A stretch of 22,575 nucleotides of DNA from a virus. Positions 4,154-22,575 of this stretch are shown one piece after another. Position 1 is the stretch's first letter, and each line of letters opens with the position of its first letter. Location: the UHGV virus genome UHGV-1464116, one strand, 5' to 3'. Both the position numbers and the translations under genes were made by a program. The notes under the pieces are model-generated. The model had not been told where the DNA came from, ran no database searches, and was given only the letters and a program-made list of their open reading frames with translations.

Positions 4154-5622
4154 TGGCACGAAACAAGCAATCCTCTCAGCGAACGGCACAGGCCACCGCT
4201 GACGGCTACGAGAACTTCGTCGCCCGCGTTGGGATGCAGACGCCTAACCAGCATTCAGCATCGACCTACCGGGCGAACTTCACCAGCCGCAACCGCATGC
4301 TGGTGGAATGGTCATATCGCGGTTCGTGGGTTATCGGTGAAGCGGTCGACGCTATCCCGGACGATATGACCCGAAAGGGCATTCGCATCACTTCGGAGAT
4401 TGACGCCAAAGACCGTGGCACCCTCGAAGCGCAACTGGATGAGTTGCAGATCTGGGATGCGCTGAACGACGTGCTGAAATGGTCGCGCCTCTACGGCGGC
4501 GCGGTCGGCTTCATCATGATCGAGGGGCAAGCACCAATGACCCCGCTGCGACTCGAAACCATTGGCGAGGGCAAGTTTAAGGGCATTCTCCCGCTCGACC
4601 GCTGGATGATTAACCCGGTGCTGACACGCCGCATTAAAGAGATGGGGCCGGACCTCGGCAAGCCTGAGTTTTACGACGTGGTGACCACCGCAACGGGCAT
4701 TCCGGCCTGGCGCATCCATCACAGCCGCCTGATCCGCTTTGATGGCGTCACGCTGCCATTCCAGCAGAAGATGACCGAAAACGAATGGGGAATGTCGGTT
4801 GTAGAGCGTATCTGGGATCGGCTTACTGCGTTCGATAGCGCTACTGTCGGCGCGGCGCAGCTGGTCTATAAAGCGCATCTGCGTACCTATAGCGTGGAGA
4901 AGTTGCGCGAGCTTATCGCGCTTGGAGGCCCGGCGTTCGAAGCGTTGCTGAAGAACATCGACCTGATCCGCCAGTTCCAGAGCAATGAAGGTATGACGCT
5001 CATGGACTCGCGGGATAAGTTCGAAACCCACCAGTACAGCTTTAGTGGTCTGGATGACATTCTTTCGCAGTTTGCTGAGCAGATCAGCGGTGCCGTTGGT
5101 ATCCCGCTGGTACGCCTGTTCGGTCAATCCCCGAAAGGCTTCTCTACTGGTGATGCAGACCTCGCCAACTATTACGACCGGGTGAGCTCATTGCAGGAGC
5201 GCCGCTTACGGCTGCCGATGCGCCGGATACTGGACATTATGCACCGCTCGGAACTCGGAAAGCCGCTGCCGGACGATTTCACGTTTGAGTTTAACCCGCT
5301 ATGGCAAATGTCAGACGTTGACCGATCAACGGTGGCCGTAAACACCACCAACGCGATCAGTACCGCGCTGGGCGACGGATTGATGACGCGTAAGGCGGCG
5401 ATGACCGACCTGCGCGAAAACTCTGACGTCACCGGCATCGGGGCATCCATTACCGACGAGGATATCGAGAATGCCGAAGACGAAGCGCCGCCAGGCATCG
5501 GCGAACTTGGCGACAACCCGCCAGAGCCGCCAGGCGGAGATCCGATATCGAACGAGCCTACGGCAGATAGCGCGGGCGGTCGGGGATATCGTAAATGGTC
5601 GCTACGATGGTTCAAACGATAG
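4153..5622 (+). CDS. Portal protein
   Basis: 489 aa; ATGA overlap with terminase stop; acidic Pro-rich C-terminal tail; position between terminase and Mu-F-like gene. Confidence 0.8.
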   Translation: MARNKQSSQRTAQATADGYENFVARVGMQTPNQHSASTYRANFTSRNRMLVEWSYRGSWVIGEAVDAIPDDMTRKGIRITSEIDAKDRGTLEAQLDELQIWDALNDVLKWSRLYGGAVGFIMIEGQAPMTPLRLETIGEGKFKGILPLDRWMINPVLTRRIKEMGPDLGKPEFYDVVTTATGIPAWRIHHSRLIRFDGVTLPFQQKMTENEWGMSVVERIWDRLTAFDSATVGAAQLVYKAHLRTYSVEKLRELIALGGPAFEALLKNIDLIRQFQSNEGMTLMDSRDKFETHQYSFSGLDDILSQFAEQISGAVGIPLVRLFGQSPKGFSTGDADLANYYDRVSSLQERRLRLPMRRILDIMHRSELGKPLPDDFTFEFNPLWQMSDVDRSTVAVNTTNAISTALGDGLMTRKAAMTDLRENSDVTGIGASITDEDIENAEDEAPPGIGELGDNPPEPPGGDPISNEPTADSAGGRGYRKWSLRWFKR

Positions 5623-6244
5623 CATCACCGAAATAATGGATGCGCTGGAGCGCTACAGCGAAATCATCACCCCCTGGGCGACGAAGGTTGCTGAGAACTT
5701 TACCGCCGACATTGCGCGCCAGAATGAAAAGCAGTGGCGTCAGCACAGCCGGAACATCAGTGCAGAGCTGCGCAACATGGTTGACCGCGCCCCGGTAGGC
5801 CAGGTGATGAAATCCATCGTTGCCGAGCAGATTAAGTACATCAAATCGCTACCTCTTGAGGCCGCCGATCGGGTGTATGACATTCAGAACAAAGCCATCG
5901 AGGCCGTTGTGACTGGTGGCCGCGCTGAGCCATTCGCGAAAGAGATAGCTGCGTCCGGTGACGTGTCACGCTCACGAGCGAACCTTATCGCCCGTACCGA
6001 GCTTGGACGCGCAACCGGCGCGCTCGATCAGGCGCGTGCGCTGTCAATCGGCTCGAATGGTTATATCTGGCGTACAGCCGAAGATGGCGACGTCCGGCAT
6101 TCTCATCGGGAGATGGAAGGTAAGTTTGTCGAATGGGGCCGACCTCCAACGCTTGACGGTATGACCGGTCACGCTGGTGAGCTGCCGAACTGCCGCTGTT
6201 ACAAAGAAATCGTCTTCCCCAACCCTCATTCTTATCTCGCCTGA
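5471..6244 (+). CDS. Head morphogenesis protein (Phage Mu F / SPP1 gp7-like)
   Basis: C-terminal motif ...WRTAEDGDVRHSHREMEGKFVEWGRPP...HAGELPNCRCY characteristic of the Mu F-like domain; start uncertain (ATG 5471 overlaps the portal by ~150 nt; alternative ATG at 5636 after the portal stop). Confidence 0.7.
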   Translation: MPKTKRRQASANLATTRQSRQAEIRYRTSLRQIARAVGDIVNGRYDGSNDSITEIMDALERYSEIITPWATKVAENFTADIARQNEKQWRQHSRNISAELRNMVDRAPVGQVMKSIVAEQIKYIKSLPLEAADRVYDIQNKAIEAVVTGGRAEPFAKEIAASGDVSRSRANLIARTELGRATGALDQARALSIGSNGYIWRTAEDGDVRHSHREMEGKFVEWGRPPTLDGMTGHAGELPNCRCYKEIVFPNPHSYLA

Positions 6245-11044: not shown

Positions 11045-12205
11045 ATGACGCAGGGCTTACCTGTATCCAACGTTGTAAACGTTGATGTGATCATCTCGCC
11101 GAAAGCGGCTACTGGTCGTAACTTCGGCGCATTGCTAATCCTTGGCTCTTCCACTGTCATTCCGGTGACAGAACGTACTCGCCTATATGCTTCCGTTGAG
11201 GACATTGGCGAAGACTTCGGTGTCGACAGCCCGGAATATAAAGCAGCGCAGGTTTTCTTCAGCCAGTCACCGAAGCCGACACAGGTTTATGTTGGTCGCT
11301 GGGCGAAGACGCTGAGTTCTTCCGAGAGTGGAAATACTGAAACTATCGTGCAAGCCGTTAATGCCTGCCTGCAATATACCAACTGGTATGGGCTGGTTGT
11401 CGCTGATGATGTTGTCGCTGGTGGCGATGTGCTTGATGCTGATGACGTGATTGAGGTCGCCAAACTTATTGAAGCGTCCAGCCTTAGCCGTATCTTTGGT
11501 GTGACCTCTGCCGACGCCGAGATTATCAGCACGACTTCGACGACCGATGTTGCGTCGAAATTAAAGGCTGGCAAGTATGCCCGTACCTTTATTCAGTATT
11601 CCACCAGCAGCCCTTACGCAGCGGTTTCTGCTTTCGGTCGTGCGTTTACTGTCAATTTCAACGGCAGCAATACCACCATTACCCTGAAGTTCAAACAGGA
11701 ACCAAGCGTAACCTACGAAACGTTGACGGTAGGCCAGGCGGCTGCGGTGGATACGAAGAATGCGAACGTATTCGTGTACTACGCCAACGACACGGCGATC
11801 CTGCAACAGGGTGTCATGGCGAACGGTGACTTCTTCGACGAGCGCCACGGGCTCGACTGGTTGCAGAACTACGTTCAGACCAACCTCTATAACCTGCTTT
11901 ACACCAGCACCACCAAAATTCCGCAGACTGATGCCGGTGTGACCCGTCTGCTTTCCAACGTTGAACAGTCCATGGATCAGTCCGTCACGAACGGTCTGGT
12001 AGCTGCTGGCGTGTGGAATGGTGGCCCTATCGGACAGCTGAATTCCGGCGATACGCTGACCAAAGGCTATTACGTGTATGCGCAACCGCTGTCCGAACAG
12101 GCGCAGGCCGACCGCGAAGCGCGCAAAGCACCGTTAATCCAGGTGGCCTGTAAGCTGGCTGGCGCAGTTCATTATGCCGATGTGCAGATCAACGTGGTTC
12201 GCTAA
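11045..12205 (+). CDS. Tail sheath protein
   Basis: 386 aa; GGAG RBS; followed by a tube-sized gene, a chaperone with frameshift and the tape measure, the canonical contractile-tail order. Confidence 0.7.
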
Positions 12206-12215
12206 GGAGCGATAA

Positions 12216-12656
12216 ATGGCAACTTATTCTTTTCTCGATGTAACCGCGTCGCTCACCGGGCCGACCGGCGTTATCGATCTTGGTCAGGGTTCTGCGAACT
12301 CTGAGGAAGGTATCACCCAGACCATGGGCGGCAACAAAAACACCATGACCATCGGTGCCGATGGCGAGGTGATGCACAGCCTGCACGCCGATAAGTCAGG
12401 CACCATTACGGTGACGCTACTCAAAACCTCTCCGGTGAATAAAAAGCTGTCTCTGGCGTATAACGCGCAAAGCCAGTCCTCTGCCACCTGGGGCAATAAC
12501 GTGATCGTCATTCGCAACACGGCATCGGGTGATATTTCTACTGCACGTTCGTGTGCATTCCAGAAACAGCCTGATTTCAATAACGCTAAAGAGGGCGGAA
12601 CCGTCGCATGGGTATTCGACTGCGGCAAGATTGACCAGCTTCTCGGGGAGTTTTAA
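12216..12656 (+). CDS. Tail tube protein
   Basis: 146 aa immediately after the sheath; GGAGCGATAA before ATG. Confidence 0.65.
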   Translation: MATYSFLDVTASLTGPTGVIDLGQGSANSEEGITQTMGGNKNTMTIGADGEVMHSLHADKSGTITVTLLKTSPVNKKLSLAYNAQSQSSATWGNNVIVIRNTASGDISTARSCAFQKQPDFNNAKEGGTVAWVFDCGKIDQLLGEF

Positions 12657-12659
12657 CGC

Positions 12660-13085
12660 ATGGAATTCGAAATTAAAGGCGTGAAATATCGCACCGCAAA
12701 GCTCAGCGTTTTCGAACAGCTGAAGGTGTCCCGCAAGCTGTTGCCGGTTCTGGCCGGGATGGTTTCTGACTTCCGGAGCGTTCAGGAGAAGATCAGCAGC
12801 AAAGACACCGAAGGCGCGATGGCTACCATCCTGCCAAAGATTGCCAATGCTGTGTCCGATCTGAGTGATGGCGACGTGGACGCTATCCTGTTCCCCTGTC
12901 TTTCCGTTGTTTCACGCGAGCACATGAAAGGCTGGGTGCCGGTCTGCCAGCATGGCGAAATGGCGTTTGACGATATCGACCTGCTGACCATGCTGCAACT
13001 GGTGGCGCGGGTGGTCGCCGACTCTCTGGGAAATTTTTTGCAAGGACTCCCTACCAGCGAGACGCCCACCCCGCCAGCGGAATAA
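12660..13085 (+). CDS. Tail assembly chaperone (short, in-frame product)
   Basis: 141 aa between tube and tape measure; contains slippery sequence GGGAAATTTTTTG near its 3' end. Confidence 0.65.
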   Translation: MEFEIKGVKYRTAKLSVFEQLKVSRKLLPVLAGMVSDFRSVQEKISSKDTEGAMATILPKIANAVSDLSDGDVDAILFPCLSVVSREHMKGWVPVCQHGEMAFDDIDLLTMLQLVARVVADSLGNFLQGLPTSETPTPPAE

Positions 13086-13273
13086 CCTTCAATAGCCTGC
13101 CGGGCGGTGAAGATTTTATTCTTCGTCCGGCGCTTGCCTTCCATATTGACCAGAAAGACCTTAACAGCGGTGCGGTAGATCTTTGCCGCATCGCGCTTCT
13201 CAATGACTACCTCGACATGCGCGAGGATAACGACGCCCGGATAGATAAATGGAGAGCGGCCAATGAGCGGTAA
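12660..13273 (+). CDS. Tail assembly chaperone, -1 frameshifted long product (G-T-like fusion)
   Basis: -1 frame is open with no start codon from 12971 to stop 13271-13273; slippery heptamer G_GGA_AAT at 13028..13034 (then T_TTT_TTG) in the zero frame; extension reads ...FFARTPYQRDAHPASGITFNSLPGGEDFILRPALAFHIDQKDLNSGAVDLCRIALLNDYLDMREDNDARIDKWRAANER. Confidence 0.5.
13028..13040 (+). other. Candidate programmed -1 ribosomal frameshift slippery site
   Basis: GGGAAATTTTTTG; G_GGA_AAT is in the X_XXY_YYZ register relative to the chaperone frame. Confidence 0.5.
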
Positions 13274-15275
13274 CGCAGATACGATTAAAGATTTCCTTGT
13301 TTCGCTGGGATTCGATATCGATCAGGCTGGCGCTAATAAGTTTGAAGCCGTGCTGAAAGGTGTTACCGCGAACGTTCTGAAGGTCGGCGCGGTGGTGGAA
13401 GGCGCAGCGCTGAGCATTGTCGGATTTACCACCCAGATCGCGAATGGTCTGGATAAAATTTACTGGGCATCCCAGCGGACGGGGGCCAGCGTCCAGGGCA
13501 TCAAAGCGCTGGGCTATGCCGCATCGCAAACCGGTGCCAGCGCCGAGTCGGCTATGTCCTCCCTCGAAGGGCTGGCGGGGTTCATGCGTAGCAATCCGGG
13601 GGCGGAAGGCTTCCTGAACCGCCTGGGTGTCCAGACCCGTGATGCCAGCGGAAAGATGCGTGATACTGCGGCCATCTTTACTGGCGTTGGGCAAAAGCTC
13701 AACAACATGCCGTATTACCGCGCGAAGCAATACGCGCAGATGCTTGGCATCGATGAAAACACGCTGATGGCGATGCGGCGCGGCATGAATGGCTTTACCG
13801 CCGATTACCAGTCGATGCTGCAAAAGACAGGGTTCAACGCTGATAAAGCGGCTGTTCAGTCCAACAAATTCATGACGTCCATGCGCGGGCTTACGTCGCT
13901 GTTCGGCATCATGCGGGACAAGATCGGCTCAAACCTCGCTGGTGGCCTGGCTGGTTCGCTGGACAGCCTGCGGCGGCGCATCCTCGACAATTTCCCGAAG
14001 ATTGAAGAGACGCTTACCAGAGTTATTAACGGCGTGATCTGGCTTGCGAACGCATTCACGAGAATGGCGTGGCGGCTGATACAGGGCGCTGGCTCTGTCA
14101 TCGACTGGTGGAAGCGTCTTGACGATGGCAGTAAAAATCTGCTGAAAATATTCGGTGCTCTACTTGTCGCATGGCGTCTGCTTAATTCTGCGTTCCTGAA
14201 ATCCCCGATTGGAATTATCACCACGCTGATTCTGGCGATCGGATTACTCTATGACGATTACCAGACGTGGAAAGAGGGCGGAAAAAGCCTGATTGACTGG
14301 AGCAAGTGGGAACCAGCAATAGAAAAGGCGAAAAAGGCAATTATCTGGCTGCGAGATAAGCTGTTGGAGCTAAAAGATTCTGTCGGTGGGTGGCAGAACT
14401 CACTGGAAATTTTGGCTACCTTCATTGCAGGGGTATGGTTAAGCAAAATAACCTCTGCATTTGCTAAGTTAGCCGGAATACCTATGCCGCCATGGCTGAA
14501 GCTGTGGGCTATTTATGCCGGGTATCTGGTGGACGACAGGCATAATATTAAAGAAAGCGCTAAATCATCATGGGACTACACCAAAGGAAACATCGGAGAT
14601 GCGCTCCGCTGGATGGGGTTTAATACCGATTTTGGCCGCAATCCCAATACCGTGTATGGCGCGAATATTCAGTCAGATATTCCAGGCGCTGAACCGGAGC
14701 AATACGCCCAGTCAGTGAAGCGCCCACAAGCCACAGCCCAGGGTAAGGTATTGCTCGACTGGATGGGGCCAATGTTCAATAAACTGGAGTCGCTTTATCA
14801 GCTGCCAGCTGGCCTGTTGAAAAGCGTGGCGATCACCGAGTCGGGTGGTAACCAGTTCGCCATATCCGGCGCAGGCGCGAAAGGACTGTTTCAGTTTATG
14901 GATGGCACGGCGCGCGACATGGGCCTGCGTGGGAATGATGTATTCGACCCGGAAAAGTCAGCTCAGGCAGCCGCTAAGTACCTCAGCCAGCTGTTGCGGC
15001 AGAACGGCGGAGACCTTAGCAAAGCACTGGCATCATATAACTGGGGGATCGGGAATGTTAAGCGTTATGGAATGGGGCTAATGCCGCAGGAAACGCGCAA
15101 TTACATTCCGAAAGTAATGAGCAATATGCCCACCAGCGCCCCGGTGATTCAGCAGGAAACGAACATTAACATCCACGGCGTTTCCGATCCTCGCGAAGCT
15201 GCCCGTTTGACTGTTGACCGTCAAAAGGGCGTGAATTCACAGTTAACCCAGCAACTCCCCGCAGGACCGAGATAA
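13263..15275 (+). CDS. Tail tape measure protein with C-terminal lytic transglycosylase (SLT) domain
   Basis: 670 aa; hydrophobic segments in the middle; C-terminal SLT-like motifs AITESGGNQ (Glu codon at 14838-14840), GLFQFM, ASYNWGIGN. Confidence 0.85.
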   Translation: MSGNADTIKDFLVSLGFDIDQAGANKFEAVLKGVTANVLKVGAVVEGAALSIVGFTTQIANGLDKIYWASQRTGASVQGIKALGYAASQTGASAESAMSSLEGLAGFMRSNPGAEGFLNRLGVQTRDASGKMRDTAAIFTGVGQKLNNMPYYRAKQYAQMLGIDENTLMAMRRGMNGFTADYQSMLQKTGFNADKAAVQSNKFMTSMRGLTSLFGIMRDKIGSNLAGGLAGSLDSLRRRILDNFPKIEETLTRVINGVIWLANAFTRMAWRLIQGAGSVIDWWKRLDDGSKNLLKIFGALLVAWRLLNSAFLKSPIGIITTLILAIGLLYDDYQTWKEGGKSLIDWSKWEPAIEKAKKAIIWLRDKLLELKDSVGGWQNSLEILATFIAGVWLSKITSAFAKLAGIPMPPWLKLWAIYAGYLVDDRHNIKESAKSSWDYTKGNIGDALRWMGFNTDFGRNPNTVYGANIQSDIPGAEPEQYAQSVKRPQATAQGKVLLDWMGPMFNKLESLYQLPAGLLKSVAITESGGNQFAISGAGAKGLFQFMDGTARDMGLRGNDVFDPEKSAQAAAKYLSQLLRQNGGDLSKALASYNWGIGNVKRYGMGLMPQETRNYIPKVMSNMPTSAPVIQQETNINIHGVSDPREAARLTVDRQKGVNSQLTQQLPAGPR

Positions 15276-15877
15276 TGGATATTTTATCAGCGATTTTTCG
15301 CCAGCAATCCCGGCGAATTGGCCTGCTGATCCCCAGCGTGGTCGTCTCCGAAAAGCATTCTGATGCGCTCGAAATTACTGAGCACCCGGTGGAGAAGCCA
15401 ACAACGAATAGCGCTTCGGGCTTCATCGCCGATCATGCGTATAAGCGCCCCAGCGAAGTCACAATGGAATGCGGCTTCGCTGGTGGCGGTTCGTTGCTGG
15501 ACTTCATTGATACATCTTCAATCGGCCTCAGCGCCGGACTAAGCCCGAAAGAGACCTATCAGCAACTGCTGGATCTCCAGTCCTCTCGGGTGCCGTTCGA
15601 TGTGGTGACCGGAAAGCGGGTGTACAGCAATATGCTGGTGCGAGCCATCGAGGTGACAACGGACAAAACCAGCGAAAACGTGCTGAACTGCACGCTTACC
15701 CTGCGTGAAGTGATCATGTCGCAAACGCAGAGCGTTAGTGTTGCTGATAAATCAGATATGCAGGATGGCGTCAGCACATCGGCGGTGCAAAATTCCGGGA
15801 CGAAATCCACTACACAGCCAAACGAATCCTTGCTGAGCCAGCTTGGCGGAAGCGTTACATCAGCATTCGGGGGATGA
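15275..15877 (+). CDS. Tail/baseplate protein downstream of tape measure (unassigned)
   Basis: 200 aa; ATGG overlap with tape measure stop; position equivalent to the post-tape-measure gene of Mu-like tails. Confidence 0.5.
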   Translation: MDILSAIFRQQSRRIGLLIPSVVVSEKHSDALEITEHPVEKPTTNSASGFIADHAYKRPSEVTMECGFAGGGSLLDFIDTSSIGLSAGLSPKETYQQLLDLQSSRVPFDVVTGKRVYSNMLVRAIEVTTDKTSENVLNCTLTLREVIMSQTQSVSVADKSDMQDGVSTSAVQNSGTKSTTQPNESLLSQLGGSVTSAFGG

Positions 15878-15878
15878 T

Positions 15879-16184
15879 ATGCAGTTTAACGAAATACCGC
15901 TTTCTCCTGACAATCAGCAGTTCCGCGTTTTGCTGGGCAATACCACCTATACGCTCAGGATCATCTGGCGCGATGCGGCTGGCTGGATCATGGACGTGAT
16001 GGATAGCGGCGGTGCTGCGCTTCTTTCTGGCGTGCCGCTGGTAACCGGTGTAAATCTTCTTGAGCAATATCCTCAACTAGGTATTAACGGGGCGCTGCTC
16101 GTTGGCTGCGATGTAGGCGCACCGGACGAGCCCACCAAAACCAACCTCGGCACATACAGCCACCTCATTTTCGTGCAGGAGTAG
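15879..16184 (+). CDS. Small tail/baseplate protein
   Basis: Track ORF 15843..16184; start ATG 15879 (MQFNEI..) preferred, preceded by GGGGGA and just after the upstream stop. Confidence 0.5.
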   Translation: MQFNEIPLSPDNQQFRVLLGNTTYTLRIIWRDAAGWIMDVMDSGGAALLSGVPLVTGVNLLEQYPQLGINGALLVGCDVGAPDEPTKTNLGTYSHLIFVQE

Positions 16185-16186
16185 AA

Positions 16187-17251
16187 ATGTCTCTTAACTG
16201 GATGCGCCATTTTGAGCTGCAACTGTTGGACCAGAACGGGCAGGGCGTTTCCCTGTCTGACTTTAAGGTCACGTTCCAGATCGAGTGGGCAGACACACGC
16301 TGGCCGCGCGTGGCGAACGTGAAAATTTACAACCTTTCGACCGATACCACGAACAAGATACTGGGGCAGGAGTTTGCCAAAATTCGCATCATTGCCGGGT
16401 ATGACGGTATAGCGCCGGATGTTGATGCGAGCCAGGTCGGCGTCGCCCGAGAGATTTCACCAGACCAGATAGGGCAGGTGAACGGTCAGAACTACGGCCT
16501 GATTTTTGACGGTGATATTCGCTTTACCGTAACCGGGAAGGACAACATTACCGATTCCTGGGTGTTGATTCAGGCTATTGGAGATCATGAAGCGTTCCTC
16601 TACGCGACTACCATCACTACGCTTGCCGCTGGCTATACCGTTGCGGATCTGCACCGGGCGACGATGCAGGATTTCAACGTGTTCGGCGTGACACAGGGCA
16701 TTACCGGCGATTTTCCTGATACCGTGTTTCCTCGTGGCCGCGCGATTTACTCATCCACTCGTAACGTGATGGATAATATTGCAGCGCAGTGCAAAGCGAC
16801 ATGGCAGCTGGTGGATGGTCAGGTCCAGATGGTGCCGGAGGATAAATATATTCACGAAGCCATTGTGTTGAATGCCAATACTGGCCTGATTGGTATGCCG
16901 CAACAGACGATGGGCGGCGGCGTAAACGTGCGGTGCCTGATAAACCCAAACATCCGCATTAATGGTCTTATCCAGCTCGATCAGGCTTCGGTGTACCGCG
17001 CGTCGCTCGGTAATAGCGAAATCGCACAGTCGCCCGGGCGTATCACCGAAACTGAAGAGAATGGCAACCGTGTGCTGACCGGTACGACGTCACAGGCTGC
17101 CAGCATTGCGACGGATGGCGTTTATATCGTCAAAGCTATCGACTATACTGGCGACACCAGAGGTCAGGCGTGGTACATGGATTTGATGTGCTTTGCGCGT
17201 GGCAGTCGTGAATTATATAGTCAGTCGACGCTCCAAAAAGTACAGGTGTGA
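16187..17251 (+). CDS. Baseplate hub-like protein (P2 gpD / Mu gp44-like position)
   Basis: 354 aa; positioned before the spike protein as in Mu-like baseplates; assignment by synteny and size. Confidence 0.55.
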   Translation: MSLNWMRHFELQLLDQNGQGVSLSDFKVTFQIEWADTRWPRVANVKIYNLSTDTTNKILGQEFAKIRIIAGYDGIAPDVDASQVGVAREISPDQIGQVNGQNYGLIFDGDIRFTVTGKDNITDSWVLIQAIGDHEAFLYATTITTLAAGYTVADLHRATMQDFNVFGVTQGITGDFPDTVFPRGRAIYSSTRNVMDNIAAQCKATWQLVDGQVQMVPEDKYIHEAIVLNANTGLIGMPQQTMGGGVNVRCLINPNIRINGLIQLDQASVYRASLGNSEIAQSPGRITETEENGNRVLTGTTSQAASIATDGVYIVKAIDYTGDTRGQAWYMDLMCFARGSRELYSQSTLQKVQV

Positions 17252-17252
17252 T

Positions 17253-17603
17253 ATGACAAAAATTAGGAATGTTATCTGCGGAGCCGTTCTTTCGTTGGTC
17301 GGAGCTTCAACTGCAATGGCTGATACCCAATGCGGGCCATATCGCCTCACCGCAGGTAATGATGGTTTTATGCATATTAATGGTGTAAAGCCAGAAAACC
17401 AGAAAATGACCTTTCTGAAAGCCAAGGAAGATTATCAAAATCTCAAGATGGAATGGACGGTTGCAACTAATCAACCCGGCCGCTGGGTTGGGCTTGAGTA
17501 CATCAAGCGCAACGGCAAAGCCATTCTCAACGCACAGTGGCTGCAAGCCAGCATGGATTCGCCGCGTCAGTATGCAACATACGACTGCCGAAAAGTAAAA
17601 TAG
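17253..17603 (+). CDS. Secreted (signal-peptide) protein of unknown function, accessory/moron gene
   Basis: Track ORF 17193..17603; ATG 17253 gives MTKIRNVICGAVLSLVGASTAMA|DTQC.. with a typical Sec signal and AXA cleavage site; two Cys in mature part; lower GC than flanking tail genes. Confidence 0.6.
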   Translation: MTKIRNVICGAVLSLVGASTAMADTQCGPYRLTAGNDGFMHINGVKPENQKMTFLKAKEDYQNLKMEWTVATNQPGRWVGLEYIKRNGKAILNAQWLQASMDSPRQYATYDCRKVK

Positions 17604-17621
17604 CCCGCCAGATAGGCGGGC
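17603..17621 (-). terminator. Hairpin terminator between convergent accessory genes
   Basis: GCCCGCC-AGATA-GGCGGGC perfect 7-bp stem; on the minus strand it is followed by CTATTTTACTTTT, 5 nt downstream of the DUF4236 gene stop. Confidence 0.5.
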
Positions 17622-17626
17622 ATGCG

Positions 17627-17917
17627 TCAAAAATATTGAGCTTTAATTATAATAAACACAATAATTACGAACAGGATGTTTCTAATTATTTTTTGCTTAT
17701 GAGTAAGTTGTTTTTTTTCTGTCGATTTCCCGGGAGAGTAAAGGTTAGTGGTATGCGACAGCCCCGTGCCGGGAAGGCCATTTGTCATCTTTACGCCTTT
17801 TTTTCCGATGTTAATGGTGGAACCTTTACCACCAATTGAAGTGCTTACTCCGCTTTTACTAATGTTGATCGCGAGTCCGGGCGCAATCCGGATTCTTTTA
17901 CGAAATCTAAATCCCAT
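17627..17917 (-). CDS. DUF4236-like small membrane protein
   Basis: N-terminus MGFRFRKRIRIAPGLAINISKSGVSTSIGGKG...GLPGTGLSHT matches the DUF4236 signature as I recall it; C-terminal hydrophobic helix ILFVIIVFIII; AGGAG 6 nt upstream of ATG; very AT-rich codon usage. Confidence 0.7.
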   Translation of the reverse strand: MGFRFRKRIRIAPGLAINISKSGVSTSIGGKGSTINIGKKGVKMTNGLPGTGLSHTTNLYSPGKSTEKKQLTHKQKIIRNILFVIIVFIIIKAQYF

Positions 17918-18104
17918 TTGTTACTCCTGTAGTCAATAATGCGATGGTGCAGGTCCACTCTATGGCGGCTTCATGGCTGAAATTGATTTTCAATGCTTAC
18001 TTGTTGCAAACATATCCTAATACACCTTGTGAATGTGTGCCATTGCAGCGGAAAAGCCTTACTTCACACTGATGTAGCTTAGTTACTAAGAGATAATTGA
18101 TACC

Positions 18105-18128
18105 AAACCAGCTTCGGCTGGTTTTTTT
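18105..18128 (+). terminator. Strong intrinsic terminator immediately upstream of the spike gene
   Basis: AAACCAGC-TTCG-GCTGGTTT followed by TTTTTTT; UUCG tetraloop. Confidence 0.55.
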
Positions 18129-18139
18129 ATGGGGGTTTT

Positions 18140-18880
18140 ATGCCAATTCCAACTCAATCACAGATCGGGGGTGAGCAGCAGACCGCGCAGGCCATTGCCG
18201 ATTCGGTGTCTACCCAGATGCGCGTAGCGATGCCCGGCATCATTCAGTCGTTCGATCCTGACACTGTTACCTGCACAGTAGAGGTAGCGCTTCGCGGTAT
18301 TGTTGGCGATGGCTCCACCGAATTAAAACCGCTGGTGGATGTGCCGGTTATCTTCCCGCGCGGCGGCGGTTGCACGCTGACCTTTCCGGTAAAAGAAGGC
18401 GACGAGTGCCTGCTGATCTTTGCCGACCGTTGCATCGATTTCTGGTGGCAGAGCGGCGGCGTTCAGGAGACCGTCGATCCGCGACAGCATGACTTATCTG
18501 ATGCGTTCGCCATCGTTGGCCCGCAGTCGCAAGCACAGAAAATCAGCGGTATCAGTACCAGCGCCGCGCAGCTGCGAACCGATGATGGTGCGGCGTTCGT
18601 AGAGGTTGCCGCAGGACATAACATCACCGTTCAAACACCGGGCCAGCTCACGGCTACGGCTGAAGGTGGAACGACAATCACATCCCCGACTATCACGCTG
18701 AACGGCAACGTAACGATTAATGGCAATCTGTCTCAGGGAATGGGCGAAAGTGGCGGTACTGCGACGATGCTTGGGCCGGTGACGGTGACTAACGATGTGA
18801 AGGCTGGAGGAAAGAGCCTCATCCAGCATACCCATGGCGGTGTGCAGAATGGCAGCGGGAATACTACCGCGCCTAATTAA
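18140..18880 (+). CDS. Baseplate central spike protein (gpV / Mu gp45-like)
   Basis: 246 aa; Gly/Thr-rich beta-helix-like C-terminal region (TITSPTITLNGNVTINGNL) and terminal HTHGG motif typical of gpV-type spikes. Confidence 0.7.
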   Translation: MPIPTQSQIGGEQQTAQAIADSVSTQMRVAMPGIIQSFDPDTVTCTVEVALRGIVGDGSTELKPLVDVPVIFPRGGGCTLTFPVKEGDECLLIFADRCIDFWWQSGGVQETVDPRQHDLSDAFAIVGPQSQAQKISGISTSAAQLRTDDGAAFVEVAAGHNITVQTPGQLTATAEGGTTITSPTITLNGNVTINGNLSQGMGESGGTATMLGPVTVTNDVKAGGKSLIQHTHGGVQNGSGNTTAPN

Positions 18881-18896
18881 AAACTACCAAACAGAC

Positions 18897-18932
18897 AAAA
18901 GCCCCGGGTGCGCTAACACTTCGGGGCTTTTT
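18897..18932. terminator. Intrinsic terminator after spike gene (possibly bidirectional)
   Basis: AAAAGCCCCG...CGGGGCTTTT 10-bp stem with U-rich tails on both strands. Confidence 0.5.
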
Positions 18933-18967
18933 ACTTTCTGCACCTTGAGGATAGCAAGGGAGAATAT

Positions 18968-19105
18968 GTGATTAATTTTAGCAAACTGATACGGGAGTTG
19001 CGAGTCATGGGCGAAAAACTACCCAACTGGAAATTCTTCCTCATCTGGGCCGTGTTCTTTTTATTCGGTCTGTCAAGCGTTATTAGCGCTATACGCTGGT
19101 GGTGA
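18968..19105 (+). CDS. Candidate small membrane protein (45 aa from GTG; 32 aa from ATG 19007)
   Basis: AGGGAG 4-6 nt upstream of GTG 18968; product contains a single hydrophobic helix WKFFLIWAVFFLFGLSSVISAI; stop at 19103-19105, 3 nt before the next gene ATG. Not in the ORF track because it is under 60 aa. Confidence 0.3.
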   Translation: MINFSKLIRELRVMGEKLPNWKFFLIWAVFFLFGLSSVISAIRWW

Positions 19106-19108
19106 TTT

Positions 19109-19462
19109 ATGCGATACAGACGTGAAGACACCGACGGTGATTACACTTTCGGGCAGGGTGACGATACTTTCCTTATCGACAGTCCGGAATGTGTCGCCCA
19201 GGCAGTAAAAACCCGCTTCGAGCTGTGGCGCGGTCAGTGGTTTCTCGATCTGACGGAAGGCACGCCGTATGTTCAGTCGGTGCTTGGTAAACAGCGATCT
19301 GACGTCTACATCCTGGCTATACGTGAACGCATACAGGACACACCGGGCGTTCTGTCGATTCTTTCCTTCGATACCAATTATGACGGCACCAGCCGTCGCG
19401 TCACCTTCACTTCCTCCATTGACACAATCTACGGCCAGACGACTGTAACAAGCGAGGCATAA
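19109..19462 (+). CDS. Baseplate protein (Mu gp46-like)
   Basis: 117 aa directly upstream of the baseplate J-like gene, matching Mu-like order. Confidence 0.6.
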   Translation: MRYRREDTDGDYTFGQGDDTFLIDSPECVAQAVKTRFELWRGQWFLDLTEGTPYVQSVLGKQRSDVYILAIRERIQDTPGVLSILSFDTNYDGTSRRVTFTSSIDTIYGQTTVTSEA

Positions 19463-20662
19463 ATGGCTTTGAACCTCGACACGCTGGGGCTATCGGCAAC
19501 GGTAACCGCCCAGGGGATTAGTGCGCCTGATTACCAGACAATCCTTGATACACTGACCAGCTATTTCAGGCAGATTTACGGTAGTGATGCCTACCTCGAA
19601 CCAGACAGCAAAGATGGGCAAATGGTCGCGCTGGTGGCTCTTGCGGTGCATGACGCTAACAATACCGCTATCGAGATCTACAACTCTTTTTCACCGACGA
19701 CAGCGCAGGCCGCAGCGCTTAGCAACAATGTGAAAATTAACGGGATCACGCGAAAAGTAGCGACAAACTCTACTGCTGACCTTCTGTTAACCGGTACGGC
19801 AGGCACGACTATCACGAATGGCTCCGCACGGGATAAAAACGGCATTATCTGGAATTTTCCCGCAAGTGTAGCGATCGGCGTTGATGGTACTGTGCTGGTG
19901 ACGGCCACATGTGCGAATAGCGGTTCGGTTGCTGCGATGGCCGGGACTATTACCACCATTAACACACCGACTCGTGGCTGGGTTTCGGTAACCAATCCTG
20001 CTGCAGCTACTGTAGGCACTCCAGCAGAAACTGATGCGGAGTTACGTATCCGCCAGTCGCAAAGCGTCGCGCTACCATCGATCACACCGTTTGAAGGTGT
20101 CGACGGTGCAATAGCTAACGTTGCTGGCGTGACACGTCACAAGTTGTATGAGAACGACACAGGAACAACAGACAGCAACGGGCTACCGCCGCACTCAATT
20201 TCCGCCATCGTCGATGGTGGGGATGTTACCGAAATAGCCCAGACCATCAGGGGGAATAAAGGACAGGGAACGGCAACCTACGGGACAACTTCTGTCACGG
20301 TGCCGGATACTTACGGTAATCCTCACGTCATCAGTTTTTCACGCTCTACCGATGTGCCAATTTTCGTAGCCATTACCCTGAAAGTTTTTACCGGCTATAC
20401 CTCTCAAATCGGCGAGCAGATTAAACAGGCTGTTGCCGATTATATAAATGGCCTAACAATTGGCGACGACGTTCTGCTGAGCCGTATTTATTCCCCGGCA
20501 AACCTCGGCGTTGTGAGCGGCGGGAATGCCCGCTATTACGATATTACCGACCTGCTGATCGGTAAGTCGTCTGGCAGCGTATCGGCATCAAACATTGATA
20601 TTGCCTATGATGCTTCAGCGTCCTGTAGCACCGCGAATATCAGTATCACGGTGACCTCATGA
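19463..20662 (+). CDS. Baseplate J-like protein (Mu gp47-like)
   Basis: 399 aa; size and position typical of gpJ-family baseplate wedge proteins; TAAATG junction with the upstream gene. Confidence 0.7.
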   Translation: MALNLDTLGLSATVTAQGISAPDYQTILDTLTSYFRQIYGSDAYLEPDSKDGQMVALVALAVHDANNTAIEIYNSFSPTTAQAAALSNNVKINGITRKVATNSTADLLLTGTAGTTITNGSARDKNGIIWNFPASVAIGVDGTVLVTATCANSGSVAAMAGTITTINTPTRGWVSVTNPAAATVGTPAETDAELRIRQSQSVALPSITPFEGVDGAIANVAGVTRHKLYENDTGTTDSNGLPPHSISAIVDGGDVTEIAQTIRGNKGQGTATYGTTSVTVPDTYGNPHVISFSRSTDVPIFVAITLKVFTGYTSQIGEQIKQAVADYINGLTIGDDVLLSRIYSPANLGVVSGGNARYYDITDLLIGKSSGSVSASNIDIAYDASASCSTANISITVTS

Positions 20663-21339
20663 GCAAATACACCGAACTGATCACTAACTACCACGCTACC
20701 AAGCCACTCTTTTTTGACCATATAGATCTGAGCACCCGCCCGCTGATTGATGTGTCCAGCACTATGTCAGGGCTTATAACAGCCTTCGATATCGATACTG
20801 CTGTCGGTGTACAGCTCGACATCCTCGGTCTGTGGATCGGACGCAGTCGCATAGTCAGCCAGCCAATTAGCGGAGTTTATTTCAGCTGGGACACTGACGG
20901 GCTTGGGTATGACCAGGGCATCTGGCAAGGGCCATATGATCCTGATTCTGGCTATACGACTCTAAGCGATGAGACGTACCGCATCATTCTGAAAGCGAAA
21001 ATCGCTATCAACAACTGGGACGGTCGGAACGACTCTCTGCCTCCCATCCTTGACGCTGCTACCGCAGGCTCAGGCCTGAGGATGCAGATCGTCGACAACC
21101 AGGACATGACGATTTCGGTCTGGGTTTTCCCTGAAACTGATATTTCTGATGTGTCTCTCGAACTGATCGCCGCTATCAAACAGGGCTATCTCACCGTTAA
21201 ATCAGCTGGCGTATGGGCCGGTGATGTTGAAACGCCTTCGGTTGAAACACCTTCCGAGGGTTCTAAATTCTTTGGGTTTGATATTGATAACGAATACATC
21301 AGTGGTTTTGATGTAGGGGCATGGGGAGTATTACTCTGA
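20659..21339 (+). CDS. Baseplate/tail protein (P2 gpI / Mu gp48-like)
   Basis: 226 aa; ATGA overlap at both ends; position between gpJ-like and tail fiber genes. Confidence 0.6.
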
Positions 21340-22133
21340 TGGCGAAAAATGACTTTAAAGCGTTTGCAACTGATCGGAATGCCAATGTTATGTCGCAGGA
21401 GGAATGGGAAGCGTTGCCTGCGCTTATATCCGGATTTACAGCAGGGAAAGCATCCAGTGCGCAAGTCAATAAGGTTATTCGACAGGCCAGCTTTATTGCT
21501 GCAGCTCTGGCCCAGTTTGTAAGTGATAAAACGCAACGGGATGTGCTTGATAATGGTGATCTGCCCGGTTTTGTTGAATTGCTGGGATCGGGGTTTGCTG
21601 TTGAATACCTGAGCCGCAAGAATCCGTTTGGCGATATCAAATCGGATGGCACGGTGAAAACGGCTCTCGAAAACCTTGGTTTGGGAGAAGGTGCTCCAGC
21701 TATTGGCGTTCCGTTCTTCTGGCCGTCCGCTGCAATGCCAAATACTGTAATCGACAGCTGGTCCAGTATGGTGTTTTTGAAGTTCAACGGGGCGAAATTT
21801 TCTGCCTCTGATTACCCTGTGCTGGCGAAAGTGTTTCCTTCACTGGTATTACCTGAAGCCCGCGGTGATTTCATTCGTATCTGGGATGACGGGCGAGGTG
21901 CCGATGGTGGTCGCGAATTATTAAGCTGGCAGGAAGCTACAAACTTTTCTCAGTTTGCCGGGAATATAGGCGGAGGTGCGGGACACGCAATTAACTTTCA
22001 TGATGGCATCGCCGGAAATCAGCCAGGATTTTCACGATTTAATTTCACCAGTAACTCTGTGGGTGATGGTGTGAATTTTGTTGCTGTCAGACCGCGAAAT
22101 ATTGCATTTAACTTTCTGGTGAGGGCTAAATAA
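21339..22133 (+). CDS. Tail fiber protein
   Basis: Track ORF 21321..22133; start ATG 21339 overlaps the upstream stop; N-terminal region reads like a conserved fiber anchor, C-terminal part Gly-rich; followed by a fiber assembly gene. Confidence 0.7.
21664..21689. other. Candidate recombination site for a Gin/Hin-family DNA invertase (gix/hix-like), inside the tail fiber gene
   Basis: CTCTCGAAAACC-TT-GGTTTGGGAGAA: 26-bp imperfect palindrome (10/12 half-site symmetry) with AAACC-NN-GGTTT core; 10/12 match of the left half to the hixL half-site TTCTTGAAAACC as I recall it. Confidence 0.4.
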
Positions 22134-22575
22134 TGAAACCTGTTTTTGATGAAAATGGGCTGGCTACAGTGCCGGGCGATATGCGTTGTTTTTATTATGA
22201 TGCTGAAACATCTGAGTATACGGGCTGGTCTGATGAATATATTAATACTGGCGTAAGTATGCCCGCCTGTTCCACTGGTATTGACCCTGGCGAAAACATT
22301 CCGGGAAGAGTGGCAGTATTTACAGGTAAGGGATGGAGCCATGAAGAAGACCATCGCAATGAGACTGTTTACTCAATCGAAAATGGTGCTGCTGTTACAG
22401 TGGATTATATCGGTGCCATCAAAAACGGTTATGTCACGCTTTCACCGTTAACGCCATATGATAAATGGGATGGTGAGAAATGGGTGACAGATACTGAGGC
22501 ACAACACGGTGCCGCAGTAGAAGCGGCAGAAGCACAGCGCCAGTCACTGATTGATGCTGCAATGGCTTCCATCAG
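22133..22575 (+). CDS. Tail fiber assembly protein (Tfa / Mu U-like), 3' partial
   Basis: ATG at 22133 overlapping the fiber stop (TAATG); translation [40 protein letters not shown]... resembles fiber-assembly chaperones; runs off the window end, so absent from the ORF track. Confidence 0.75.
   Translation, partial: MKPVFDENGLATVPGDMRCFYYDAETSEYTGWSDEYINTGVSMPACSTGIDPGENIPGRVAVFTGKGWSHEEDHRNETVYSIENGAAVTVDYIGAIKNGYVTLSPLTPYDKWDGEKWVTDTEAQHGAAVEAAEAQRQSLIDAAMASI

Follow-up and report, generated by a model that had tools for sequence, protein, structure and literature searches.

A 26-bp site within the tail-fibre gene of a myovirus-type prophage, very probably the left crossover site of an invertible segment

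Does the fibre gene of a prophage, as we read it in a single assembly, tell us all that its virions may display at the tip of their tails? The question is raised by a short imperfect palindrome lying within such a gene in the virus genome UHGV-1464116, of which we analysed a stretch of 22,575 nucleotides, henceforth the window. A first-pass annotation, made from the sequence alone, had likened this 26-mer to the sites of Hin/Gin-type DNA invertases and proposed that it bounds a segment which may be flipped to change host range, the partner site and the enzyme being expected further downstream.

The window holds the late genes of a prophage of myovirus type, in the order Rz lysis protein, Rha-type regulator, terminase, portal, Mu-F-like protein, capsid, sheath, tube, tape measure, baseplate and fibre. 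Two features of this region may be recorded for their own sake. The Rha-family regulator (Phage_pRha and ORF11CD3; 639-1244, + strand) sits between the Rz and small terminase genes, and is separated from terminase by some 700 nt that hold short open reading frames only. Further on, amid the otherwise one-directional baseplate block, a 96-residue DUF4236 open reading frame is found on the opposite strand (17627-17917, -), with about 220 nt free of called genes after it; it is present in all sister prophages and looks like a moron-type insertion.

A crossover site at the constant/variable junction of the fibre gene

The tail-fibre gene (21339-22133, + strand) codes for 264 amino acids, its ATG overlapping, as ATGA, the stop codon of the preceding Phage_Wedge1 gene; relatives annotate a 'phage tail protein' that is likewise of 264 amino acids. 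The 26-mer, CTCTCGAAAACCTTGGTTTGGGAGAA, is found on the + strand at 21664-21689 and occurs only once in the window. It comprises an outer half, CTCTCGAAAACC (21664-21675, +), a core dinucleotide TT (21676-21677, +) and an inner half, GGTTTGGGAGAA (21678-21689, +), that is, two imperfect 12-bp half-sites around a 2-bp core, in the manner of the gix and pix sites. It starts 108 codons into the gene, in keeping with the 'about 110' first proposed, and spans codons 109-117, with the core TT in codon 113. The centre AAACC-TT-GGTTT, on which the site had been spotted, is exact (AAACCNNGGTTT), with one match in the window and none in 100 shuffles.

What makes this a crossover site rather than any palindrome? 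Its symmetry had been put at 10 of 12 positions. The correct count is 9 of 12, and this cannot be taken as significant by itself because the window holds 13 sites of the 12-2-12 layout with a symmetry of at least 9/12, where shuffled sequences hold about 10. Palindromic symmetry, being at chance level, was accordingly rejected as evidence. The true signal is identity to known invertase sites, which is far above chance. The 26 positions are all identical to those of the left site of prophage e14, inside stfP/ycfK (E. coli K-12 record), and they are also identical, 26/26, to those of the left site of a segment in the Mu-like prophage of enteropathogenic E. coli (EPEC) O127:H6 E2348/69 (L034; Goldberg et al. 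2014, PMC4272514). Consistently, the e14 repeat TTGGTTTGGGAGAAGG is present 16/16 at window positions 21676-21691, while the inverted repeat published for EPEC, AAACCTTGGTTTGGGAGAA (PMC4272514 Table S1), is contained 19/19 in the window site. The resemblance to Hin/Gin-type half-sites is upheld against the annotated record of phage Mu, where the boundary sites of the G segment are TTATCCAAAACC-TC-GGTTTACAGGAA (gixL) and TTCCTGTAAACC-GA-GGTTTTGGATAA (gixR).

The placement of the site at the junction between the constant and the variable parts of the fibre, as in Mu and e14, proved right as well. On its left, the constant 5' part of the gene (codons 1-112; 21339-21675, +) is kept in both orientations; sister prophages that have an identical wedge protein share it, and diverge from it after the peptide ENLGLGE. 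On its right begins cassette A (21676-22133, +, from core to stop codon), which lies inside the invertible segment and codes for the C-terminal, receptor-binding end of the fibre that is expressed at present. It is precisely at the left site that homology begins between cassette A and the side tail fibres of the lambdoid phages mEp213 and mEp043, as well as phage 500465-2. Counting from ENLGLGE, 132 of 155 residues are identical between cassette A and its EPEC counterpart; a Pfam search with cassette A returned no domain. The next gene, tfaA, is a tail-fibre assembly (chaperone) gene (Pfam Caudo_TAP, E = 2.1e-27), which starts at 22133 on the + strand and is cut by the end of the window at 22575, as the first-pass annotation had it.

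A further observation concerns the DNA immediately ahead of the site. About 52 nt (window 21612-21663) are 96-99% conserved with fibres of the e14 and EPEC types, amid constant regions that are otherwise unrelated, so that the conserved unit exceeds the 26-bp site. In this part of the gene, DNA homology with e14 is limited to positions 10274-10356 of contig L006, which we now describe.

The other end of the segment

Exact look-up of the fibre protein retrieved several contigs, one of them being Ga0134545_1000021 of the JGI metagenome 3300029310 (L006). Over 11,237 bases this contig matches window 11339-22575 at 100%, and we therefore take it to continue the window (subtracting 11338 from a window coordinate gives the L006 coordinate). 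There tfaA is complete, coding for 197 amino acids with a stop codon at window-equivalent 22726 (L006 11388). Convergent with it comes tfaB (L006 11360-11776, -), also a Caudo_TAP match, followed by cassette B, a silent fibre C-terminus with a Gp53-like_C domain (L006 11779-12248, -): this is the oppositely oriented pair of assembly gene and fibre end that had been anticipated. The inverted partner, or right crossover site, TTCTCCCAAACC-AA-CCTTTTTTATAA, is located at L006 12235-12260 (+). Its inner half and core are the reverse complement of those of the left site at 14/14 positions, with core AA for TT, and the arms of the two sites are 1,883 nt apart. Its outer half, in contrast, is degenerate: read inward, as TTATAAAAAAGG, it matches the other half-sites poorly. 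Finally, where a serine recombinase of about 190 residues had been predicted, there is a gene for an intact 182-residue enzyme with Resolvase and HTH_7 domains (L006 12320-12868, +). Just past it, at about L006 13005, the prophage ends and adjoins a YCII-family gene; this end corresponds in position to the attachment site, of phi80 type, that is annotated in mEp237, as well as to yciI of E. coli AR_0118.

The same region gave a few side observations. The 3' ends of tfaA and tfaB overlap by 29 nt (L006 11360-11388, window-equivalent 22698-22726), as they do in e14 (L012 5518-5546). The final 286 nt or so of tfaA match e14 tfaE and the tfa genes of sister prophages at about 89-91%, including where the cassettes are not alike; this stretch could be a second seam for cassette shuffling. 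Scans for tRNAs and Rfam families across the window and L006 found nothing, and a consensus scan for promoters and terminators around the right site yielded nothing above chance.

At this point we may weigh the most economical objection, namely that the palindrome is coincidental and has no function in recombination. A symmetry no more frequent than chance predicts is what this objection would lead us to expect. Against it stand the complete match to two sites that are reported to work, the presence of the inverted partner, the alternative cassettes and the invertase, all where predicted, and the coincidence of homology breakpoints with the left site. The outcome that the first-pass annotation had named as fatal to its proposal, lack of a partner site and of an invertase within a few kilobases, did not occur. 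We hold the coincidental reading to be already refuted, its chances being practically nil.

Inversion in silico and a plausible mechanism

When the segment is flipped in silico between the core dinucleotides, both sites are regenerated and the first 116 residues of the fibre are joined in frame to cassette B, to give a protein of 268 residues with the Gp53-like_C domain. These constant residues can be joined to either end because the crossover falls in the same codon phase in both cassettes, each of which is an in-frame alternative C-terminus with an assembly gene of its own (both tfa products are Caudo_TAP proteins). In our view the 26-mer very probably serves as left crossover site to an invertible tail-fibre segment of the Pin/Gin type, of the same kind as the P segment of e14 and the G segment of Mu.

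The reaction that we infer for the adjacent enzyme would proceed as follows. One dimer of the 182-residue serine invertase would sit on each of the two inverted 26-bp sites. The dimers would synapse, and the four strands would be cut with a 2-nt stagger at the central TT/AA and become covalently linked to Ser9. Rotation of half of the complex by 180 degrees, followed by religation, would then leave the 1,911-nt core-to-core segment inverted. In the present orientation, the constant part and cassette A would make the 264-residue fibre, with tfaA co-expressed; after inversion, the constant part and cassette B would make the 268-residue fibre with its Gp53-like end, with tfaB co-expressed. There being two alternative fibre ends, a population of lysogens would therefore release virions of two receptor specificities.

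Comparison with known inversion systems

The P segment of e14 (PinE; stfP-tfaP / tfaE-stfE) illustrates how much is held in common. Its right site, TTCTCCCAAACC-AA-CGTTTATGAAAA, has the same inner half and core, 14/14. Gene order is the same, with baseplate J, wedge, fibre and tfa, then tfa' and the fibre C' on the opposite strand, then the invertase, and so are the convergent overlap of the tfa genes, the codon phase and the ENLGLGE junction peptide. The differences are that e14 is a decayed remnant where the window has a full late-gene region; that its constant region is unrelated save for the last 52 nt or so; that its cassettes are others; that PinE is 54% identical to the invertase found here; and that the outer half of its right site is CGTTTATGAAAA instead of CCTTTTTTATAA. 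The 1,797-bp e14 segment is reported to invert between TTGGTTTGGGAGAAGG and CCTTCTCCCAAACCAA, by the action of PinE, PinQ or PinR in K-12 (PMC12529663). Sequencing of clonal K-12 cultures showed both orientations, with 51 +/- 6% forward (PMC4272514).

The EPEC segment (NC_011601.1, 2749478-2751398) is likewise found in both orientations in clonal cultures, with 60 +/- 8% forward (PMC4272514). Alignment to the 1,911-nt segment described here runs from end to end, at 93.8%, which means that EPEC carries the same pair of A and B cassettes. We consequently count as established that this site and this cassette pair invert in other strains. EPEC differs in its backbone, of YmfQ/GP46 type, in its constant region, and in a right site and flank that are of the e14/Pin type. 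Its adjacent invertase is a pseudogene (L034 5042-5134), yet the segment is reported to flip, so that another enzyme, presumably encoded elsewhere, must supply the activity there.

The G segment of Mu (Gin; gixL/gixR; S/U versus S'/U') shares the architecture. A site lies, there too, where the constant and variable parts meet, in the same codon phase, and the sites have the 12-2-12 layout and the AAACC..GGTTT centre. The junction peptide is QNLGLQE in Mu, for ENLGLGE in the window and in e14. Mu differs further by a segment of about 3 kb, a CG/CT-type core context (CC-TC-GG), other cassettes, and an invertase, Gin, that is 52% identical to the one studied here. The Hin/hix system of Salmonella, Cin/cix of P1 and Min of p15B also use 26-bp sites and interchangeable serine invertases, and require Fis together with an enhancer; Hin inverts a promoter, not a gene end, and Min drives a multi-site shufflon.

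Both orientations, and the possibility of a locked segment

Is the flipped state to be found in nature? The predicted 268-residue fusion has a full-length relative, itself of 268 residues, at 97% identity, which represents 42 cluster members (P0016; E. coli and Salmonella). The contig that codes for this relative (L016) is 97-98% identical to relatives of the window prophage up to the last base of the 26-mer; beyond it comes cassette B, at 98%, oriented for expression. Another contig, L036, is collinear with both the EPEC segment and that of the window once these have been flipped in silico: cassette B and its tfa are expressed, while tfaA and the start of cassette A stand inverted against the right site, followed by the invertase flank. 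The A/B cassette pair thus occurs in nature in both states.

For the exact combination, that is, this constant region with the A/B pair and the 182-residue invertase, only the A state was retrieved, with no flipped copy. Exact look-up of the predicted fusion protein in the protein collection gave no match; in complete E. coli genomes, the flipped left junction found no record with a query coverage of 80% or more; and two metagenome scans for junctions specific to the flipped state gave 0 hits each. The whole module had no full-length match among complete E. coli genomes, which implies that the exact combination is absent from them and that orientation cannot be polled there. The thought that sister prophages might be flips of one another was also entertained, by comparing L017, L022 and L023, flipped in silico, with L018, L019, L021, L024 and L026; it was rejected, as these carry different cassettes.

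Such results might fit a locked relic, in which a former crossover site survives only because it codes for ENLGLGE and the segment no longer flips, the cause being either a divergent invertase that does not act on the sites or is hardly produced, or an outer half of the partner site that is too degenerate. All retrieved copies of the exact prophage type being in the A orientation, the negative searches for flipped junctions, the weak outer half and the strong hairpin over the ribosome-binding site of the invertase gene (see below) all go in this direction. Locking has plausible precedents among relatives: L004, L005 and L010 (12192-12422) keep only a 76-residue stub of the invertase, beside a host GGDEF gene; L024 (6006-6031) has a G-to-A change in its site (ENLDLGE) and no invertase; and L018 lacks both an invertase and any copy of the inner half-site within 1 mismatch. 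It is exactly in these elements that the locked relatives have decayed, whereas here the inner half-sites and cores make a perfect inverted pair, and the invertase frame is intact, has all its catalytic residues and is 99.5% conserved in a viable phage. Furthermore, the EPEC sites are reported to flip despite the adjacent pseudogene, and three enzymes, PinE, PinQ and PinR, are reported to invert the e14 segment (PMC12529663), from which it follows that any Pin-like enzyme of the host could drive the segment of the window too. A locked segment thus appears distinctly unlikely to us, and we retain a segment that can still be inverted as the preferred reading.

Another way to look at the switch is that it would mainly serve the host, inversion changing a free fibre fragment made from an ATG located outside the right site. 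Such an ATG does exist (L006 12262-12264, -; window-equivalent 23600-23602): it abuts the right site and opens a frame, MVIKKVGLGE..., into the silent cassette, and the equivalent open reading frame has been called or annotated in relatives (L017, 116 residues; AR_0118, 161 residues). There is also a parallel with e14 stfE, as StfE2, a chimera created by inversion, is reported to block adsorption of phage T2 (PMC12529663). No promoter-like site reading leftward into the segment rises above chance, however, and the prophage, unlike e14, appears structurally complete across the window, from lysis genes to fibre, which makes the host range of the virion a simpler purpose. We consider a mainly host-serving switch to be very unlikely; the idea is compatible with the main explanation, that of an invertible tail-fibre segment.

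The invertase

The enzyme encoded next to the right site (Resolvase E = 5.6e-39, HTH_7 E = 1.5e-9) is a small serine recombinase with a helix-turn-helix domain, nearer to invertases than to resolvases: among solved structures its best match is Gin of Mu (3uj3, E = 2.5e-56), against 7e-25 for gamma-delta resolvase. Residues R7, S9, D64, R65 and R68, together with the C-terminal STLYK recognition helix, are the same in PinE and Gin, and in Gin the catalytic serine is S9 (PMC3575834). Overall identity to Gin and PinE is 52-54%, whereas these two share 78%, and this makes the enzyme an outlying lineage of the invertase family. With the annotated 'DNA invertase' of mEp237, an isolated lambdoid phage, it shares 99.5% identity, and its 90% cluster has 402 members, with E. 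coli and Citrobacter freundii as source names.

How might its activity be controlled? In hin, gin and cin the enhancer, acting in cis, is made of a pair of Fis sites that lie within the 5' portion of the invertase gene. A scan of the present gene with a degenerate Fis motif found one match, centred on nucleotide 132 and aligned with a match in gin; paired Fis sites at the expected spacing were not found, and even gin yielded no clean pair with this motif. On the helix that holds H106 and M114 in Gin, the enzyme has R and Y at these two positions. A single change on this helix, M114V, frees Gin from its requirement for Fis. Upstream of the ATG (L006 12320), a hairpin with a perfect stem of 11-12 bp, TTTCTCCTGTT ... 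AACAGGAGAAA (L006 12288-12316, window-equivalent 23626-23654; -22.7 kcal/mol, z = -4.7), buries the AGGAGA ribosome-binding site and may keep translation of the invertase low. It is kept in mEp237, with the outermost pair changed in a compensatory way (T-A to C-G), and no such hairpin is found upstream of e14 pinE.

The low identity to Gin and PinE, the R and Y residues, the hairpin and the portability of the module lead to the idea of a distinct, uncharacterized Gin/Pin lineage, of the mEp237 type, perhaps controlled unlike the classical enzymes. We would regard this as possible, if rather unlikely. If true, we would have a naturally Fis-independent invertase, throttled at the level of translation, whose site doubles as a junction for swaps of fibre cassettes between unrelated phages.

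Crossover sites as seams of fibre gene mosaicism

Every homology block that we mapped, against lambdoid, P2-like and e14-like phages, ends at one or the other of the two crossover sites. From the left site onward, cassette A is held in common with mEp213, mEp043 and phage 500465-2; up to the site, cassette B is held in common with an e14-like prophage (L014) and a P2-like one (L015). Sister prophages with an identical wedge protein have fibres of 236 to 328 residues, which diverge after ENLGLGE or LTYLGLGE. This pattern is the known mosaicism of tail-fibre genes, with the crossover sites as its seams.

The seam at the right-hand end extends further. Positions 4913-5689 of mEp237 (L032, JQ182730) are 96.7% identical to L006 12232-13008, a stretch that starts with the right site, takes in the invertase and reaches the annotated att core. 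As judged from this alignment, the right site, the invertase and the att-proximal end are a module common to a myovirus-type prophage and a lambdoid siphovirus. The 'DNA invertase' module of mEp237 shares the inner half of the right site, the hairpin and the att-proximal position; it differs in belonging to a siphovirus, and in having one site and no recognizable invertible cassette pair in the 10.5 kb examined, so that its invertase looks orphaned. A literature search on mEp237 returned unrelated matches only.

One junction among the sister prophages deserves separate mention. When L019 and L026 are compared with L017 and L022, homology at 100% breaks off at about 6099-6115, some 3 nt beyond the core dinucleotide (LTYLG|IKD...), and unrelated DNA stands in place of the inner half-site. 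The junction has the look of an earlier exchange, at the core, with a non-cognate site.

What the finding means

The mechanism is already known, and of a textbook kind (Mu, P1, e14): the family being long known and the site identical to characterized ones, there is little new in it. For the biology of this prophage, the segment would mean that it can alternate between two receptor-binding fibre ends. As there are two, a host-range prediction made from one assembly is incomplete, and the silent cassette B must count. Annotators should likewise see the fibre gene of such assemblies as one of two states, and be aware that contigs often break inside the segment. The new points are modest: a divergent lineage of invertases, and an exchange of fibre cassettes among myovirus-type, P2-like and lambdoid phages whose breakpoints fall at the crossover sites.
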